A program made the translations under genes and the position numbers. A stretch of DNA of 45,658 bases. It comes from Thainema sp. (GTDB lineage: Bacteria; Cyanobacteriota; Cyanobacteriia; Phormidesmidales; Phormidesmidaceae). A model generated the notes under the pieces. It had not been told where the DNA came from. It made no database searches and saw only the letters and a list, made by a program, of their open reading frames with translations. Below are positions 34,484 through 42,970 of the stretch, in pieces. Numbering within the stretch: the first letter of the stretch is position 1; each line of letters starts with the position of its first letter. The DNA lies in the NCBI GenBank assembly GCA_052168235.1, contig JBQLZK010000061.1, positions 1-45,658 of the forward strand. Reading direction: 5' to 3'.

Positions 34484-36781
34484 ATGGTTAAGTACGCACT
34501 TATCATTGGTATTAATCAATACGAAAACTTCTCAAATCTAAAGAGTGCAGCACAGGACGCTGAGACTGTAGCCCAACTATTAGAGCAACATCAGTATCAG
34601 GTGACAAGACTGCCCAGAAAATTGGTTAGCGAAAATCAATGGATAGTTGCACCTGATAAAAAGCTAGCTTATGACGAATTCAAAGATGAGCTGATCAAGT
34701 TCTTTCGGGAACGGGCAGAAAATCAAGAGGCTGTTTTATACTTTGCAGGTCACGGATTTCGCCTATTAGATGAACTAACGGAAGATCAAAAAGGCTTCTT
34801 AGCAACTTCTGACACAACGAAGGATGGCCAGAGTGCGATTCCATTCGACTCTCTCAATAAGCTGATGGGCCAAGCCCCTCTGAGTAGTCTCATGGTATTG
34901 ATGGATTGTTGTTATGCAGGAGCAATACTAAAAGAGAGACAAAACCTTTTACAACCGACTCAGACAACCTTAAGCCATAAGCATAATTCTTGTTTGATCG
35001 CAGCTTGTCGTGATTTTGAGCGTGCTAGAGAGAATAAAGAGCATGGTATTTTCACTGCTGCTGTGTTGCGAGGACTTTCAGCCGATAACGCGGTGCAGGG
35101 AGCAGTAACGAGTAATGATCTCTTTGGTTTTGTCGAGCGAGAACTCCGGAATAGTGGGCAAGAAGTGGTTCATGCCGGTATGGGAAGTGCAGTTACTCTT
35201 GTCACTTATCCCGATCCATTAGAGCTTTCGCTTAATCTACCAGCTAATACAGCCAAGGTATTTATCAGCTACCGGAGTCAACCGCCGGATTGTGATTTAG
35301 CAGAGAAATTTTACAAAGCACTGCGAGCTGAGGGCCATGAGGTCTTTATGGCGGCGGAAAGTATTCGTTTAGGTGATAACTGGTCGCAGCGAATTGATCA
35401 TGAATTAGAACAATGCGACTACTTTCTATTGTTATTGTCAGCCCAATCTGCTGTGAGTGAGATGGTGACTAAAGAGGTGCAGCGGGCAAAGGAGTTACGC
35501 GAAACCCGTGAATCTCGAAAGCCTGGAATTTTGCCAATCCGTGTTCAGTTTCCAATTAGCGGATCGATTAACTACGACCTGCAAGGATATCTCGACCAAA
35601 TACAGCAGCGGGAATGGAATTCAGCAGCGGACACTTCTAAGATTTTGGAAGAGGTGTTAACAATTTTAGCCGAGGAGCAAATTCCTGAATCTATAGCTTC
35701 ACAGACTGTTCCTGAGCCTTTAATTGATCATCCAGATAGTCCGCCAGTTCCTGTTGCACCACCAGAGTTACCTGGAGGACAAGTTGACTTAGCATCGCGT
35801 TACTACGTTGAGCGTCCTCCTATTGAAAAAAACTGTTACGAAACAATTTTAAAGCCAGGAGCCTTAATTAGAGTTAAGGCCCCTCGACAAATGGGTAAAA
35901 CATCGTTGATGTCGCGTATCCTGCATCATGCAGGAGAAAATCAGTATCTTACTGTGCCTTTGAGTTTTCAACTGGCCGATGCAGCAATCTTTGCTGATTT
36001 GGACAAATTTCTACGATGGTTTTGCGCCAGTATTGGACGACGGCTGCGACTACCTAATAAACTAGCCGATTATTGGGATGATATTTTTGGCAGCAAAGAC
36101 AACTGTACTGCTTATTTTGAAGAATATCTATTGCCAGAAATTTCTGCACCGTTGGTGTTGGGGTTAGATGAAGTAGATATGGTATTTGAGCATCCCAACA
36201 TTGCGGCAGATTTTATGGGATTGCTGCGAGCGTGGCATGAATCAGCCAAAGTAAATCAGCTTTGGAAGAAGCTACGATTGGTTGTAGTGCATTCAACAGA
36301 AGTTTATATTCCAATGAATATAAACCAGTCTCCCTTCAATGTTGGGTTACCTATTGAGCTAACAGAATTTACAGCAGCACAAATATTGGATTTATCACAA
36401 CGACATGGTTTGGAGTGGCGCAATGATGAAGTAAAGCAGTTAATGGCAATGGTAGGCGGACATCCTTATTTGCTGCGAGTAGCCCTTTACAAAATAGCAA
36501 GACAGGAAACAACTTTAGATGATTTACTCAAAGCTGCTCCTACTGAATCTGGGCCATATGGTGATCATCTACGTCGTCATCTATGGAACCTAGAACAACG
36601 ATCAGAAATGGCAGAAGCCACAAAACGAGTCATGCAATCAGCTCGTCCAGTTCGGCTTGAAGCAATTCAGGCATTTCAGTTACACAGTATGGGCGTTGTT
36701 CACCTAAGAGGGAATGAAGTATTCCCCCGCTGCAATTTGTACCGACAGTATTTTAATGATCGCCTCAGTGTTAGAAATTAA
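34484..36781 (+). CDS. Caspase (peptidase C14)-TIR-AAA_35 (STAND-like NTPase) protein
   Basis: [16 protein letters not shown] (His90), MDCC (Cys143), HGIFT; TIR KVFISY...[17 protein letters not shown] (Glu331); Walker [10 protein letters not shown], Walker B LGLDEVD, QSPFNVG, GGHPYL. Confidence 0.9.
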
Positions 36782-36807
36782 AGCTTAATATTCAGAAAAG
36801 CAAGCTT

Positions 36808-38415
36808 ATGAACTACGAAATCAATAAATATGAGTACCAAGTTGGGGGTAGCTTACCTGCAGAATCACCAACATACGTAAAACGAAAGGCAGATGATGAG
36901 CTTTTTGACAAACTTAAGGCAAGTGAATTTTGTTACGTGTTTAATTCACGCCAAATGGGCAAATCAAGTTTGCGAATCCGGGTGAAAAAGCGTTTAGAAT
37001 CTGAAGGAATTGTTTGTGGAGAACTTGATCTCCAGCAAATTGGAAGCCATGACCTAACTCCAGAACAGTGGTATGCAGGCGTTATAAGAAATTTATCTAG
37101 GAGTTTTCGTCTTCAGTCTCAAATAAATTTGCCGACTTGGTTGCGTGAAAGAAATCATCTATCTCCTGTTCAAAGACTATCAGAATTTATTGAAGATGTT
37201 CTTCTTAAGAAGATACCAGGAAAAATCGTTGTATTTATTGATGAAATCGACACAATTTTGGATCTCAATTTTCAAACTGATAGTTTTTTTGCTCTCATTC
37301 GGAATTTATTAGATGAGAGAGGCAGTAAGATGGCTTATGAACGAGTATCATTTTGTCTGCTTGGAGTTGCAATACCTAGCAGCTTAATTCAAGATAAATC
37401 TCGCACCCCATTTAATATAGGATACTCAATAGAGTTACAGGGTTTTCAGTTAAATGAGGCTGAACCACTGATTCATGGATTAAAATCTCATGCCGAAGAC
37501 CCACAAGCCGTAATGAGATCCATTTTAAAATGGACAGGAGGTCAGCCATTTTTAACTCAAAAGATATGCAATATAGTAACTAACAGCGCAGACATAATTT
37601 GCAAAAAAGACGAAGAAAATCGAATCAAAAAGATTATAAGCCTTTATATTACGAAGAACTGGAAGCAAAATGACGAGCCAATGCACCTCAGAGTTATTGA
37701 ACACCGAATACTTCAAAATCCTCAGAAAGCGAATCGTTTACTTAGCTTATACCAAAAAATCATTTTAAAGAGAAACAAGATTCTTATTGAAGAATCAGAG
37801 GAACAGCTTGAGCTTTCGCTTTCAGGACTAGTGGTGAAAAAAGGAGGAAAGCTAGAAGTTCAAAATAAAATATACAGAAAAGTTTTTTCTCAGGCATGGA
37901 TTAGAAGGAGCCTAGAAAATATACAGCCAAATCATAATAAATATATCAATTGGCTAAAATCCAACAAAAAAAATGAATTGTTGCTTCTGAGTGGAGAAGA
38001 ATTGAACTGCCTCCTAGAGTGGGCAGAAGATAAGGATCTAAGTTCACAGCTGTACTCCTATATATTAAGCAGTTTGCAGAAGCAAAAGGTTGAAATTGAA
38101 GCTGAATATAGGAAATTCCAGGGTTTGCTTTTGGTTGAAGAAAAGCTGAAAACTGATATCGAACAGAAGTCTTTAAAAGAAGTTAGTTCATATCAAGCCA
38201 GATTAGAGCAAGCCCTGAGTTTATTTAGGAAGTTTAGATATGTTCTTGTATTATCAATCATCATTCTGGTAACCAACGTAGCATCGTTGTTTTTTTATGT
38301 GAGTGAAGAAAGAATGAGTGTAATTTTAAGCATGCTATCTGCAATTTTGTTTAGTTCTTTGTCAGTGAAATTCATAAAAGAAATTATTGAAAAGCAACAA
38401 CAGAATATAACTTAA
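36808..38415 (+). CDS. AAA_35 NTPase with coiled coil and two C-terminal TM helices
   Basis: [47 protein letters not shown]; hydrophobic [21 protein letters not shown] and [16 protein letters not shown] at the C terminus. Confidence 0.88.
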
Positions 38416-38477
38416 AAGAAAGTGCCTGTACGGGTTTCATATCACATCGCGATTAAAGAGTAGTGAGGTGAAAAGTT

Positions 38478-41400
38478 ATGAGTGGCAATACTAACAACTA
38501 TGAATATCAAGTTGGTGGTAGTTTACCACCTAATTCACCAACCTATGTAAAACGGCGGGCAGATGATGATTTATATACAAAGCTTACAGCTGGTGAGTTT
38601 TGTTATGTACTGAACTCACGTCAAATGGGAAAGTCTAGTTTACGTGTGCAAACAATGCAGCGGTTAAAGGCTGAAGGAATTGCGTGTGCAGTAATTGATA
38701 TTACGGCTATTGGGAGTCAGAACATTAGTGCAGATCAATGGTATGCAGGAATAATTCGTAGTCTTACTACAAACTTTAATTTAGCACGAAAAGTTAATCT
38801 TCGAACTTGGCTACGCGAAAGAGATTTTTTGACTCCCATTCAGCGGCTAGGAGAATTTATTGAGTTTATTTTACTTGAAGAAATTGATCAACCTATAGTT
38901 GTTTTTATAGATGAGATTGATGGTGTACTCAGCTTTCAATTTTCCATTGATGATTTTTTTGCTTACATCCGTTTCTGTTCAAATCAACGTGTCGATAAAC
39001 CTATCTATAAAAAATTAACATTTTGTTTATTGGGTGTTGCGGCTCCAGCGGCTTTAATTCAAGATAAAAGACGAACACCGTTTAATATTGGTCATGCTAT
39101 TCCGTTAAGAGGTTTTCAATTTGACGAAGCACGATCATTGACTTTGGGACTACAAAAGAAAGCCGAAAATCCGGAATCCGTTCTCCAAGAAATTTTGGTT
39201 TGGACAGGGGGACAGCCTTTTTTAACTCAGAAAGTTTGCGATTTAGTGCGATCACTCAATGTGTTTATTCATACTAAAGATGAGGTGGCCAGCATTGCTC
39301 ATCTTGTGCGAACTCATATTATTGATAGCTGGGAAAATCAAGATGAGCCAGAGCATTTAAGAACTATCAGAGATAGATTGCTAAGCGATGAGAAAAAAAC
39401 GGGAAGCTTATTAAGTATCTATCAGCAGGTTTTACAAAAAGGATCAATTTATACCGATGGTAGTCAGGAGCAGACAGAATTACGTTTGTCAGGATTAGTA
39501 TTTGAGCAAAATGGAAAATTAAGAGTATATAATCGTATATACGAACTGATTTTTAGCAAAAATTGGATTGACTCAACTTTGGCTAATCTAAGACCCTACG
39601 CTGAAGCTTTAGCCGCTTGGATAAATTCTAGTTATACCGATAGTTCTCGCCTACTAAGAGGGCAAGCTCTACGAGATGCCTTAGTCTGGTCTTCTAACAA
39701 AAGTTTGAGCATTTCAGATTATAGTTTTTTATCTGCAAGTCAATCTCTAGAGAGAGAGATGATGCAGGCTGAGCTACGAGCTCAGCAAAAAGCTAATCGA
39801 ATTTTAGAAAAGGCAAAGCAGAAAGTAGAGCTAGCACTACAACAAGAACAGCAAGCAAAGCAGAAAATGCTTGAAGCAGAGCATCAATCAGCACAGGCAA
39901 TGCAAAGATTAGAACTTGCTTTGGAACAAGAAAGAAGGATTGAAGCCAAAGTATTAAAGTCAGAAAAGAAGTCTTTCCCAACTAAACACGACAAACACAA
40001 GAAAGATCGAACTCCTTTTGTGGGTTTTAGCATAGCCGTATTTCTCTTGGCAGCAGCGATTGGGCAACGGTTTTATAACGAACCCAAACTAACGGTTGGA
40101 ACAGTCGCTCCGCAGACCTTCGTTGCTCCTGAAAATGCTACTATCACCGATGAAGCAGCAACTGCGGAGCGGCGGCGTGCAGCAGAAAACGGTTCGCTTA
40201 AAATTCTTATGATTGATTCAGCTGCCGACCAAGCGATTTTGAATCGGCTCCAACAGCTTCTGAATCAGGGTACACAAATTCGGCAAAATCCAGAAATTCT
40301 TACACAAGAAGAACTGCAAGATTCTTCATTTTTTTATTTACATGGTGAAACATTACTCAATTTTTCTAGTGCGGAATGGTGGGAAACACAAACAGCTATC
40401 CGAGATATTGTTCAAGAAATACTTGCGGGAGGAATTGCTCAGGGTACTCCTGATTCAGTCTTACAGAGAGCCGTTGATTGGCAAGTTGAGTCATCTGTTC
40501 CTGCAAAAGCACAGTCTTTCGCAACTAAATTGATTTTGGAGGTGCTAAAACCCAATCTAATTGAAGATTCAGAGCAGACGCGGATGGCAGCGCAACGGGC
40601 AGCGCAAGCGGTTGATCCGGTTCAGTACACTGTGCAGGAGGGGGGCACTATCGTGGCCGTGGGTGAGGAAATCACCCAGGAAACCTTTGTTGTTTTGGAC
40701 TATTTTGGCCTCAGTCGTCGGGGAGTAAATTGGATTGGCTTTGTTGGCTTTGGCATTGCGATCACAGGTTCAGTGACGCTCTTTCTTTGGGTTGAGCAGA
40801 CATTTTATTTAGGCTTACGTCACCGCGATCACATTCTGCTCTTTCTCTTAGCGCTCAGCACTCCCGTTGTAGCAGTCGTCAACAGCTCAATTGTGACCTT
40901 ACCCGCTGTGGGACTCCTGACGGGTAGCTTCTATGGGTCAATCTTGAGCGTTACCGTGGTTGGCCTGCTGGCAGTGCTGCTGCCGATTGGGCTCGAACTG
41001 AGCATGGTGCCCTTCATTGCAGCGGCAGCAGGTGGCATTGTGGGCGGCATCATGGCGGGGCGGTTGCGATCGCGAGAAGAACTGGCGCTGTTGGGTGGAG
41101 CCGTAGGCTTGACCCAAGCGGTTGTTTATCTGCTGCTGACGCTGATTTTCACCGGCGGTAGCAGTCCCATTTGGTATTTGCTCATTGCTAATTCTGCTTG
41201 GCATGGCTTTATAGGGCTGGCTTGGAGCGTGGTGGCGCTGGGGATTAGCCCGTATTTAGAGCATGTATTCGACTTGGTTACGGCCATTCGACTGGCTGAA
41301 CTGTCCAATCCCAATCGCCCGCTGCTCAAGCGATTTGCCTATGAGGCTCCGGGTACATTCCAACATACAATGTTTGTCGCCTCTTTAGCTGAAGCGGCAG

Positions 41401-41996
41401 CGCGAGCATTGAACTGCAATGTGGAACTGGTGCGGGCAGGCACGCTCTACCATGACATCGGCAAGATGCACGATCCGCTGGGCTTTATTGAAAATCAGAT
41501 GGGTGGCCCCAACAAGCACGACGAAATTAATGACCCTTGGAAAAGTGCAGTCATTATCAAGAAGAATGTAACCGAAGGAATTGTGATGGCGAAAAAGTGC
41601 CGTCTGCCTAAGGCGGTACGAGCCTTTATTCCTGAGCATCAGGGTACAATGCTGATCACTTACTTCTACCATCAAGCCCAGCAGATGGCCGAAACCGATT
41701 CCACTATCATCTTGAATGAGCAAGACTTTCGGTATGATGGCCCTATTCCCCAATCCCGTGAAACTGGCATTGTGATGTCAGCTCATTACTGCGCAAAATC
41801 ACTACGACTGCTTAAAGCTTTTGATCCTATTGAAGCTCTAAAGGCAGTTCATCAAGTGTTACAGTATCTTGATAAGGATGGACAACTTCTAGATTCAGGT
41901 CTTCGTCAAAAAGAACTAGATCAGATTGCTGACATCTTTGTACAGGTTTGGTTACAGTCTCAGTGGAGCGGGAATTTGCTGAGTACTTCTAAATGA
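38478..41996 (+). CDS. AAA_35 NTPase-coiled coil fused to a PgpH-like 7TM-HD (HDIG) module
   Basis: Same AAA_35 motifs; Q/E/A/K-rich coiled coil; from ~40006 a TM, QRFYNEPKL, extracellular region, multiple TMs, RLAELSNPNRPLL, APGTFQH, YHDIGK, FIENQ, EHQGT, FRYDGPIPQSRETGIVM; single uninterrupted 1172-aa ORF. Confidence 0.9.
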   Translation: MSGNTNNYEYQVGGSLPPNSPTYVKRRADDDLYTKLTAGEFCYVLNSRQMGKSSLRVQTMQRLKAEGIACAVIDITAIGSQNISADQWYAGIIRSLTTNFNLARKVNLRTWLRERDFLTPIQRLGEFIEFILLEEIDQPIVVFIDEIDGVLSFQFSIDDFFAYIRFCSNQRVDKPIYKKLTFCLLGVAAPAALIQDKRRTPFNIGHAIPLRGFQFDEARSLTLGLQKKAENPESVLQEILVWTGGQPFLTQKVCDLVRSLNVFIHTKDEVASIAHLVRTHIIDSWENQDEPEHLRTIRDRLLSDEKKTGSLLSIYQQVLQKGSIYTDGSQEQTELRLSGLVFEQNGKLRVYNRIYELIFSKNWIDSTLANLRPYAEALAAWINSSYTDSSRLLRGQALRDALVWSSNKSLSISDYSFLSASQSLEREMMQAELRAQQKANRILEKAKQKVELALQQEQQAKQKMLEAEHQSAQAMQRLELALEQERRIEAKVLKSEKKSFPTKHDKHKKDRTPFVGFSIAVFLLAAAIGQRFYNEPKLTVGTVAPQTFVAPENATITDEAATAERRRAAENGSLKILMIDSAADQAILNRLQQLLNQGTQIRQNPEILTQEELQDSSFFYLHGETLLNFSSAEWWETQTAIRDIVQEILAGGIAQGTPDSVLQRAVDWQVESSVPAKAQSFATKLILEVLKPNLIEDSEQTRMAAQRAAQAVDPVQYTVQEGGTIVAVGEEITQETFVVLDYFGLSRRGVNWIGFVGFGIAITGSVTLFLWVEQTFYLGLRHRDHILLFLLALSTPVVAVVNSSIVTLPAVGLLTGSFYGSILSVTVVGLLAVLLPIGLELSMVPFIAAAAGGIVGGIMAGRLRSREELALLGGAVGLTQAVVYLLLTLIFTGGSSPIWYLLIANSAWHGFIGLAWSVVALGISPYLEHVFDLVTAIRLAELSNPNRPLLKRFAYEAPGTFQHTMFVASLAEAAARALNCNVELVRAGTLYHDIGKMHDPLGFIENQMGGPNKHDEINDPWKSAVIIKKNVTEGIVMAKKCRLPKAVRAFIPEHQGTMLITYFYHQAQQMAETDSTIILNEQDFRYDGPIPQSRETGIVMSAHYCAKSLRLLKAFDPIEALKAVHQVLQYLDKDGQLLDSGLRQKELDQIADIFVQVWLQSQWSGNLLSTSK

Positions 41997-42065
41997 TAGG
42001 CGGTGTTTATTAGCAGTTCTTGCTGGTTTTTAGTTGCTTTAGTTTTGATTGTCAGTAACCTCGTA

Positions 42066-42094
42066 TTGACTCCACCGGGCAAATCCCGTACTGT
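42066..42094 (+). promoter_or_regulatory. Sigma70-type promoter
   Basis: TTGACT (42066-42071) - 17 nt - TACTGT (42089-42094); predicted start near 42101, immediately before a hairpin. Confidence 0.7.
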
Positions 42095-42100
42095 GAAACG

Positions 42101-42335
42101 TTAAGTTGTCGAGCGAACCATCACCAAATCGCCTCGACAGCCGGACACCAGAAATCTAGTCAACGCCACCCAGAGTTGCTGGCACAACCCTGAGCGGCTG
42201 ACCTGCTAAACGTTGGAACTAGCAACGCGCAGGCTTGGGTAATTGTAGCCTCAGCCGCTCTGCATTGCACTTCAAAGTTGCAGGGGGGCTAGGTTTTTGG
42301 CTTTCCTCCGAACGTCAAAAACCAAAGGAAACACA
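42101..42335 (+). ncRNA. Candidate structured cis-regulatory leader RNA
   Basis: Complementary segments 42105-42116/42129-42141, 42148-42159/42289-42300, 42192-42201/42251-42260, 42202-42206/42229-42233, 42292-42301/42314-42323, and anti-SD 42302-42307 / SD 42326-42331. Confidence 0.55.
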
Positions 42336-42620
42336 ATGACATACTTAATCTCTGGTGCTGCTCCCCACGCAGCGCCACAGCCTCGCGCGGCTCATCCTGA
42401 CCAGCCCCAGCGCCACGGTCGCCATCCGCTGCGGATTATCCTGCTCGGCACCCGCCCCGACATCATTGTCACGATCAAAAACCTGCATCGACGCGGCTTT
42501 GCCGAAGCGAACGAGTGGAGCCAACCGATCCCCTGTCCCAGTGCAGGCGACGTGGCGCGAATTCTGGCTCAGCGGCAACCGGATGATCAAATCAGCATCC
42601 TCACCCGCTATCTCAGCTAG
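42336..42620 (+). CDS. Small hypothetical protein (94 aa)
   Basis: RBS aaagga before ATG 42336; RHPLRIILLG...TIKNLHRRGFAEANEWSQPIP...ISILTRY resembles a recurrent cyanobacterial hypothetical family (from memory, not searched). Confidence 0.75.
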   Translation: MTYLISGAAPHAAPQPRAAHPDQPQRHGRHPLRIILLGTRPDIIVTIKNLHRRGFAEANEWSQPIPCPSAGDVARILAQRQPDDQISILTRYLS

Positions 42621-42622
42621 TT

Positions 42623-42970
42623 GCCCTCACCCTAAATCCCTCTCCCAGTGCGGGCTACTGCTTATATACAAGCCTTCTAGACTTCGTTTTGACATTGAGA
42701 TCCCCCTAAATCCCCCTTAAAAAGGGGGAACCTGCTCAAAGTTCCCCCTTACTTCGTTTTGACATTGAGATCCCCCCTAGCCCCCCTTAAAAAAGGGGGA
42801 ACCTGCTCAAAGTTCCCCCTTTTTAAGGGGGATTTAGGGGGATCAGTCAGGGTTTAGAAGAACCACTTAGATGTGTATAAACAGTAGCCCAGTGCGGGAA
42901 AGGGACTTTGAAAGACCAACCTTCTGGCTCTCCTTCTCCTGTGGGGGAAAGGGCTGGGGGATGAGGGCAA
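42623..42970. repeat. Outer dispersed hairpin repeat split by an inner MITE
   Basis: gccctcaccctaaatccctctccc... and ...gggaaagggactttgaa...gggctgggggatgagggcaa; the halves rejoin at cccagtgcggg. Confidence 0.75.
42654..42888. mobile_element. MITE-like element with TIRs, target-site duplication and internal 70-bp tandem duplication
   Basis: Ends gctactgcttatataca / tgtgtataaacagtagc; flanking direct repeat cccagtgcggg (42644-42654 and 42888-42898; 9-11 bp depending on end choice); duplicated unit at 42681-42750 and 42751-42821. Confidence 0.8.

Follow-up and report, generated by a model that had tools for sequence, protein, structure and literature searches.

The stretch of DNA analysed here, referred to below as the window, is a contig of 45,658 nucleotides (nt) from the cyanobacterium Thainema sp. 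(GenBank assembly GCA_052168235.1, contig JBQLZK010000061.1), in which a promoter, a leader of about 235 nt and an open reading frame (ORF) of 94 amino acids (aa) follow one another at 42050-42620. This region is, in our judgment, rather probably one member of a widespread, so far uncatalogued cyanobacterial family of structured 5′ leaders that gate the translation of a small ORF. The leader itself is supported as a genuine, conserved and structured cis-acting RNA with its own promoter, and it probably gates translation of the small ORF. A first-pass annotation made from the letters alone had put forward a candidate new RNA switch at this place; indeed, a real and apparently new riboswitch-like leader family was found, with covariation in most of its modelled pairs and without a match in Rfam 15. 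The element in the window would work like a riboswitch gating the Shine–Dalgarno sequence (SD) or like an autoregulatory leader, and, standing outside any catalogued family, it is apparently new. The parts of the unit are as follows.

42050-42620, + strand: repeated unit of about 570 nt (promoter, leader of ~235 nt and 94-aa ORF), from BLAST within the own genome
42066-42071, + strand: −35 box TTGACT of a sigma-70-type promoter, read from the sequence and followed by a 17-nt spacer
42089-42094, + strand: −10 box TACTGT, read from the sequence
42105-42141, + strand: 5′ hairpin P1, variable in length and sequence, from the fold
42146-42305, + strand: conserved core, a long-range helix enclosing four hairpins, from a full-length match of covariance model R1
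42148-42159, + strand: 5′ strand of the long-range closing helix P2, CCAGAAATCTAG
42165-42198, + strand: hairpin P3, outer stem GCC...GGC and inner stem GTTG/CAAC
42202-42233, + strand: hairpin P5, core CGTTG/CAACG
42231-42255, + strand: hairpin P6, GGCT/AGCC, with a shortened inner stem in the window copy
42256-42288, + strand: hairpin P7, with a conserved TTGCAC loop
42289-42300, + strand: 3′ strand of P2, CTAGGTTTTTGG, the switching strand common to both folds
42192-42201 and 42251-42260, + strand: perfect helix of 10 base pairs (bp), GAGCGGCTGA / TCAGCCGCTC, from the sequence
42292-42301 and 42314-42323, + strand: alternative pairing GGTTTTTGGC / GTCAAAAACC, from the sequence
42292-42323, + strand: alternative hairpin, taking in part of the anti-SD, from inverted repeat I2 and platform-only folds
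42302-42307, + strand: anti-SD-like TTTCCT, from the sequence
42326-42331, + strand: SD AGGAAA, outside the alternative hairpin, from the sequence
42336-42620, + strand: 94-aa ORF with its ATG at 42336, of a small-protein family without a Pfam family

Results

In distant homologues of the ORF (35–46% protein identity), the upstream regions share the window's layout by eye, and 60 of 86 such regions gave a match to the leader with an nhmmer profile. Forty-five cores from other genera were placed in an alignment not fitted to any model (A4), on which the structure of seven helical segments was checked, and the covariance model R1 (171 positions, 46 pairs) was built from these cores with the window's own genus excluded. 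R1 matched the window copy over its full length (1–171) at 42146-42305 with 53.9 bits (E about 1e-13) and recovered all 20 own-genus copies (50–76 bits) as well as 59 of the 80 other-genus loci searched. The remaining 41 of the 120 R1 matches scored 16–29 bits and lay on the opposite strand at the same places or covered only one hairpin; since the opposite strand reached only such scores, the RNA reads in the direction of the ORF.

In A6, an alignment of 78 leaders fitted to R1, 88.7% of cells were paired as compared with 76.0% in shuffles, and 40 of the 46 modelled pairs, the long-range helix included, carried changes on both sides. Double-change cells numbered 478 against 159 ± 11 in shuffles, none of 500 shuffles being as high, and pairing fell to 33–46% when the partners were slid by 1–3 columns. 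In an unfitted MAFFT alignment (A3), furthermore, 13 of 20 alifold pairs had compensatory changes, and helix counts on the unfitted alignment agreed. The covariation among homologous leaders that the first-pass annotation had named as a check of its proposal was thus obtained for the core, and the leader contains a conserved aptamer-like structured domain supported by covariation, as a riboswitch does.

P3 shows the strongest covariation of the family (e.g., CG 44 / UA 22 / GC 9). Covariation is also seen in P5 (CG 35 / UA 21 / AU 19 and GC 53 / UA 22) and P2 (GC 53 / AU 21 and CG 56 / AU 20 in A6); where most genera have G-C and C-G at two positions of P2, the window's genus has A-T at both. 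The 12-bp long-range helix CCAGAAATCTAG / CTAGGTTTTTGG with its two G-T pairs is as first described, and all of its cells are paired in the 20 own-genus copies, where eight of the 12 pairs are invariant and four carry G-T/A-T changes. One P3 pair (A6 columns 30:64) is split into 20 A-U, 19 G-C and 39 non-standard cases; its counterpart in A4 is mostly A opposite C, and the pattern could reflect a conserved non-canonical pair. Ranking by mutual information placed mostly model pairs at the top, and the same scan revealed no convincing tertiary contact, the top non-model pairs being those that separate the own genus from the rest.

The claimed 5′ hairpin, P1, was also found, at 42105-42141, and an alifold consensus of the 20 copies gives it compensatory pairs (e.g., CG 13 / UG 5 / GC 2). 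In two copies (G000:C28 and G001:C16b), P1 is reduced to a short palindrome containing GCGATCGC, which we take to be the highly iterated palindrome of cyanobacteria. The 245-nt leader of the window folds at −82.1 kcal/mol, as compared with −67.3 ± 5.1 kcal/mol for its shuffles (z −2.88; one shuffle in 200 did as well), and the centroid structure includes the 5′ hairpin, the long-range helix and the 10-bp helix. The last of these, an inner helix, had been reported as well; it is perfect and present in the window, but it conflicts with the conserved fold by overlapping strands of P3, P6 and P7, and only 75% of its cells are paired in the 20 own-genus copies. We regard the 10-bp helix as a sub-clade-specific competitor or a coincidence.

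The promoter TTGACT-N17-TACTGT lies where it had first been read. The pattern TTGAYN-N16-18-TANNNT recurs at the equivalent place and fixed distance in 18/19 own-genus and 52/57 other-genus copies, and not once in control segments of coding sequence. A generic promoter scan missed the window promoter on account of its weak −10 box, TACTGT; conservation is what supports this promoter. Transcription is predicted to start near 42100.

None of the 4227 models of Rfam 15 matched the window leader as a family at E ≤ 10; the sole overlap was mir-4081 on the minus strand, at 21.8 bits as compared with a gathering score of 70. No match at E ≤ 0.1 came from seven representatives of other genera either. 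The earlier statement that the leader could not be matched to a known family has accordingly held up in a Rfam check of the window leader and of these representatives.

The 3′ strand of P2 leads into the platform, that is, the segment before the start codon. In most other genera, the platform has the order of P2 3′ strand, anti-SD, loop, SD, a short copy of the P2 5′ strand and ATG. When 49 compact other-genus platforms were folded alone, the hairpin had a mean of −17.2 kcal/mol (z −3.8) and used at least 5 of the 8 nt of the P2 3′ strand in 47 of them, and the SD was paired in 41 of the 42 in which one was recognised. Full-length models of 38 such leaders gave an unpaired SD of 0.02 with P2 forbidden and 0.15 with P2 forced (higher when forced in 37/38), and the forced and forbidden ensembles differ by about 2 kcal/mol. 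We infer from these models that the layout of most genera would be the design of a translational ON switch with OFF as its default. The look-alike of the P2 5′ strand, furthermore, tracks the helix between platform types: a CCAGA type goes with a CAGAAC helix, and a CAAAAACC type with a CAAAAA helix. Because the look-alike changes together with the helix sequence, the competition between the two pairings is argued to be functional. Testing the switching strand alone for contiguous complementarity was too crude to be informative (13/75 at p ≤ 0.05), and the platform folds were used instead; a further inverted repeat (I3), between the P2 5′ strand and codons 3–7, is at chance level, the best complement being 4.43 as compared with 4.48 in shuffles of 76 leaders.

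In the window's genus, the elements are ordered as switching strand, anti-SD, look-alike and SD. The two mutually exclusive pairings that had been proposed for the 3′ strand of the long-range helix were found in every own-genus copy assessed, the alternative hairpin using the switching strand in 19/19 (mean −11.8 kcal/mol, z −2.9, platform-only folds). The alternative pairing, TTTCCT and AGGAAA all lie where the first-pass annotation had put them; the inverted repeat I2 that forms the hairpin has 14-nt arms of 86% complementarity, and 87% of cells are paired in the alternative helix and 86% in the anti-SD/SD pairing (20 own-genus copies). The order of the window also occurs in some copies of another taxonomic family (L140, L296-L301).

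This window-type closing helix, with its A-rich 5′ strand, and platform in another family (G278, L140, L296-L301) hint at transfer of the unit between lineages, most genera of the window's own family having the other helix and platform type. Four of these loci from genome G278 (L296, L298, L300 and L301) match R1 only at positions ~21-148; they carry an insertion of ~100 nt in the P7 loop region, and the P2 3′ strand and a window-type platform come farther downstream.

The ORF that follows evolves as a protein-coding gene. Among 19 own-genus paralogues, its ratio of nonsynonymous to synonymous substitution (dN/dS) is 0.18 and its variation falls mainly on third codon positions (0.098, 0.038 and 0.257 for the three positions), while the p-distance of promoter plus leader (0.207) is about half of the synonymous p-distance of the adjoining ORF (0.437). 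By these distances, the ORF is to be taken as a real gene and the leader as constrained. The protein has a variable and disordered N-terminus and a conserved C-terminal domain of ~60 residues, for which an AlphaFold2 model (predicted local distance difference test score 79; residues 31-94 folded) gives a beta-alpha-(beta)-alpha-beta arrangement. Its family affiliation was sought widely: Pfam gave no family, NCBIfam only a chance-level match, PADLOC no family, a protein atlas only unnamed cyanobacterial clusters, and a profile search of the PDB nothing below E 0.1; Foldseek of the model against the PDB found no match at E ≤ 0.001, and a wide VIA structure search no significant structural relative (best Z 4.5). 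In a six-frame search, 152 of the 173 genomes from the window's taxonomic family had homologues of the protein, several of them with at least 29 scored matches; phmmer, run on 1.84 billion representatives, returned 125 clusters.

Several minor features of the ORF were seen in the course of these comparisons. Over its first ~45 nt, many loci (e.g., L066, L062 and L108) share a cross-genus N-terminal motif, roughly M-F-I-P-S..G-A-A-A-S-T, which reads M-T-Y-L-I-S-G-A-A in the window's genus and is also visible at the nucleotide level. A single in-frame TAA or TAG interrupts otherwise good matches in several relatives (e.g., G076:C60, G074:C328 and G078:C30), and such stops suggest pseudogenes among the many copies. 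Some ORF subfamilies, furthermore, lack the leader: 21 of the 80 other-genus loci have no R1 match, such a subfamily being exemplified by L053:1842-2069 and, by eye, also by L057, L063, L069 and L070. In this subfamily a divergent gene of 75 aa, whose HTH_3 (XRE-type) domain was detected with Pfam in L053, lies ~87 nt upstream of the ORF in place of the RNA leader, which suggests that tight control of the small protein matters.

Across the class, R1 matches occurred in 44 of 151 sampled genomes, covering 28/80 genera and 9/34 families, often with ten or more per genome and up to at least 18 scored; named relatives with the motif are Leptolyngbya sp. BC1307, Phormidesmis priestleyi, Leptothoe spongobia and Leptolyngbya sp. 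Heron Island J. Fourteen of the 16 R1 matches examined outside the own genus stand before a gene for a homologous small protein, and the other two (L142 and L302) precede ORFs without a family.

Within the own genome, a DNA search gave 14 leader matches and R1 gave 13 copies of the core. BLAST shows about 12 copies to be homologous from a sharp border near 42050, ~16 nt ahead of the −35 box, through to the stop codon at 42620, so that promoter, leader and ORF make up one unit of ~570 nt. In the congener G001, 10 DNA matches to the leader were found, at least 8 of them full-length. The copies are 73–94% identical and under purifying selection. Two own-genome contigs (C4 and C77) have ORF copies without a leader; on C145 the leader is present, and ORF homology stops just after the ATG, near the contig end.

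Discussion

Our reading of these results is as follows. From the conserved promoter would come an mRNA whose first ~235 nt fold into the 5′ hairpin and a domain of ~160 nt with four hairpins enclosed by P2, and the P2 3′ strand can instead pair with the look-alike of its partner strand that lies directly ahead of the start codon. As the two pairings share the P2 3′ strand, the folded domain and the downstream hairpin exclude each other, and the competition between the two folds would set the translation level of the small ORF. A factor that stabilises the folded domain, either a small ligand or the encoded protein, would decide the outcome. In most genera, the default fold would bury the ribosome-binding site and closure of the domain helix would partly free it, as in an ON switch; in the window's genus, the hairpin would tie up the anti-SD, and closure of the domain helix may let the anti-SD reach the SD, with a small modelled effect.

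Several observations weigh against this reading. In the window's genus, the SD lies outside the alternative hairpin, being paired in 0/19 own-genus copies; as an SD-controlling competitor, the platform shows competition in all 19 copies and burial of the SD in none, compared with the 41/42 of the other genera. Neither the alternative helix nor the anti-SD/SD pairing covaries within the genus. The modelled SD accessibility barely shifts, with means of 0.46 when P2 is forced and 0.54 when it is forbidden (19 copies; higher when forbidden in 13/19); for the window copy, the values are 0.49 and 0.59. The polarity predicted by the models, furthermore, apparently differs between the platform types, which would be odd for one gene family. 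The pair counts of A6 lean towards structure because that alignment was fitted to the model, and the gene context suggests no ligand because the RNA accompanies essentially one protein family. As to transcription, three metatranscriptome runs of one study contain only relatives' contigs, with 90–99% likeness to parts of the stretch, and some of these continue upstream through the promoter; neither a start of transcription nor expression of the window copy can be read from these runs.

The ON/OFF logic of the first-pass annotation did not find confirmation in the window's genus. A closed long-range helix that frees the anti-SD to mask the SD fits the layout of the window, but the accessibility change is the small one given above, and the polarity runs opposite in most other genera, where it is the alternative hairpin that buries the SD. 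Its other suggestion, an antisense-controlled attenuator, obtained no support.

As to the factor, the four-hairpin junction may tentatively be viewed as the aptamer of a metabolite riboswitch, whose ligand would stabilise the closing helix and flip the platform. The multi-helix junction, the strand that the closing helix shares with the platform, the two interchangeable platforms on one core, the nearly isoenergetic states and the presence in 9 of the 34 sampled families are all in keeping with it. A riboswitch would be expected next to genes that point to metabolism or transport of its ligand; of the 16 matches examined, however, 14 precede the small protein without a Pfam family, so that the RNA is tied almost only to one protein family and no ligand can be inferred, and riboswitches do not usually precede a single gene family in ten to more than eighteen copies per genome. 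If the aptamer is real, we would have a new orphan riboswitch class in cyanobacteria, filamentous ones among them, a possibility of the same tentative standing, in which a four-hairpin aptamer for a small molecule switches a multi-copy family of small proteins on or off. The putative ligand is then possibly a stress- or conflict-linked signal, because many copies adjoin STAND, TIR or KAP-type genes.

The encoded protein is the other candidate for the factor: by binding the folded domain of its own mRNA and those of its paralogues, it would set its own translation, an arrangement that we hold to be rather unlikely. RNA and ORF duplicate and travel as one sharp-bordered unit in near-exclusive association, the C-terminal domain of the protein and the junctions of the RNA are both highly conserved among paralogues, and the predicted beta-alpha-beta domain falls into a broad structural type to which RNA-binding folds also belong, albeit with a best Z of only 4.5. 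No structural or sequence match to RNA-binding families was found in the searches above, however, and a domain-stabilising protein would act on the commonest platform as an activator, not as a repressor, which is atypical of autoregulation. The ORF subfamilies without the leader (21/80 loci), one with the divergent HTH_3 gene, also speak against it.

A leader that does not switch at all, its fold setting only mRNA stability or a fixed level of translation, would explain why the modelled SD accessibility of the window's genus is ~0.5 in both states and why no trigger is known, but we consider it improbable, as a competing hairpin that reuses the helix strand is kept in 47/49 and 19/19 platforms, with the look-alike tracking the helix, and has no obvious use in a static leader.

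Translational gating by competing folds remains our preferred reading, and it can be set beside systems already described. Translational ON riboswitches with an SD-sequestering platform are exemplified by the adenine add riboswitch. Like these, the present leaders share the 3′ strand of the closing helix with an SD-burying hairpin and have nearly isoenergetic states; unlike these, they have an unrelated sequence and junction architecture, and in the window's genus the SD stays outside the competing hairpin. With autoregulatory ribosomal-protein leaders, they have in common a structured leader that is co-inherited with, and placed essentially before, one protein family, whereas the protein here is non-ribosomal, belongs to no known RNA-binding family and has many paralogous copies per genome. 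The HEARO (IsrB-associated) RNA is similarly a multi-copy structured RNA of a few hundred nt directly upstream of a cyanobacterial ORF; the present leader differs in having no Rfam match, an ORF of 65-112 aa without a nuclease domain, and no transposon ends. A Type III toxin–antitoxin system, with tandem repeats of an antitoxin RNA ahead of a toxin endoribonuclease, is not supported, because the leader is a single non-repetitive unit and the ORF has no toxin match in PADLOC or Pfam, and the element does not have the make-up of an RNA thermometer, because instead of a simple SD-masking hairpin a 160-nt four-hairpin domain is conserved across 28 genera.

The glutamine riboswitches of the downstream-peptide and glnA classes (RF01704 and RF01739) control translation. 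From these, the window leader differs in its lack of a Rfam match, in the downstream protein family, and in its much larger core of ~160 nt with four hairpins in a long-range helix. As far as the searched text of PMC2864571 goes, the downstream-peptide and glnA motifs are, like the present family, cyanobacterial 5′ leaders ahead of small ORFs of 17-100 aa whose products fall into no known protein family. The motif described here was not found in the full-text literature searched, including passages of the motif-discovery papers PMC2864571, PMC5737381 and PMC11109978; the supplement of PMC5737381, which lies outside the text covered, may list more motifs.

If our reading is right, the leader would represent a large and widespread class of structured RNA that is not in Rfam 15 and, within the limit just given, not in the literature. 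It would add a fresh orphan regulatory RNA in which nature has put two platform designs on the same conserved core, and it would give access to an unstudied small-protein family, kept by cyanobacteria in many copies and often in variable genome regions. The covariance model could annotate hundreds of currently blank intergenic regions, and the trigger would reveal a new ligand–RNA pair or a new RNA–protein feedback loop.

Genomic surroundings and mobility

The window copy lies, as the first-pass annotation had it, beside a defence island: just upstream are three consecutive defence-like AAA_35 (STAND-like) proteins (34484-41996), namely

34484-36781: caspase-TIR-AAA_35, matched by caspase and TIR-like models of PADLOC
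36808-38415: AAA_35 alone
38478-41996: AAA_35 fused to 7TM-HDED/7TM-HD/HD, with a paralogous stretch of 87% identity on contig C5

Other own-genome copies adjoin KAP nucleoside triphosphatases (NTPases; 2), DUF4238, DUF3800, a Roc-COR-LRR protein, DUF726-TerB and others, with no neighbour gene conserved among them. Between the closest copy pairs of the two congeners, only the unit is common, the upstream flanks being homologous in 0 of 6 assessable pairs and the downstream flanks in 1 of 5 (the window pair); the gene upstream of the window copy and the flanks of the C11 copy are absent from the congener or only paralogous there. The units therefore lie in variable regions or move.

These surroundings bring up one more explanation, in which the unit would be a module that is selfish or tied to islands, be it addiction-like or a mobile cassette, and its RNA would do more than cis-regulation. 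The many diverged copies, the in-frame stops in some relatives, the flanks just described and the frequently NTPase- or defence-like genes immediately upstream (AAA_35, KAP twice, DUF4238, DUF3800 and Roc-COR) would agree with it, as would the four ORF homologues found on Nostocales plasmids; no R1 match lies upstream of the ORF in the two of these four that were checked. We nevertheless deem such a module improbable, since neither a transposase nor an integrase adjoins any of the 12 copies in the own genome, the ends of the unit lack terminal inverted and direct repeats, the copies are old and under purifying selection, and the 64 viral contigs carrying the 15-nt core motif give only 18-bit fragments with R1 and no true match. 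For want of terminal repeats and of a transposase beside the 12 copies, an insertion sequence or a miniature inverted-repeat transposable element is not supported.

The sequence from 42621 on lies outside the unit and consists of unrelated short dispersed repeats. Indeed, 42621-42970 is occupied by short palindromic repeats, with G/C runs around TTAAAAA, which are present on dozens of own-genome contigs and give rise to spurious weak microRNA and PsrR1 matches in Rfam.

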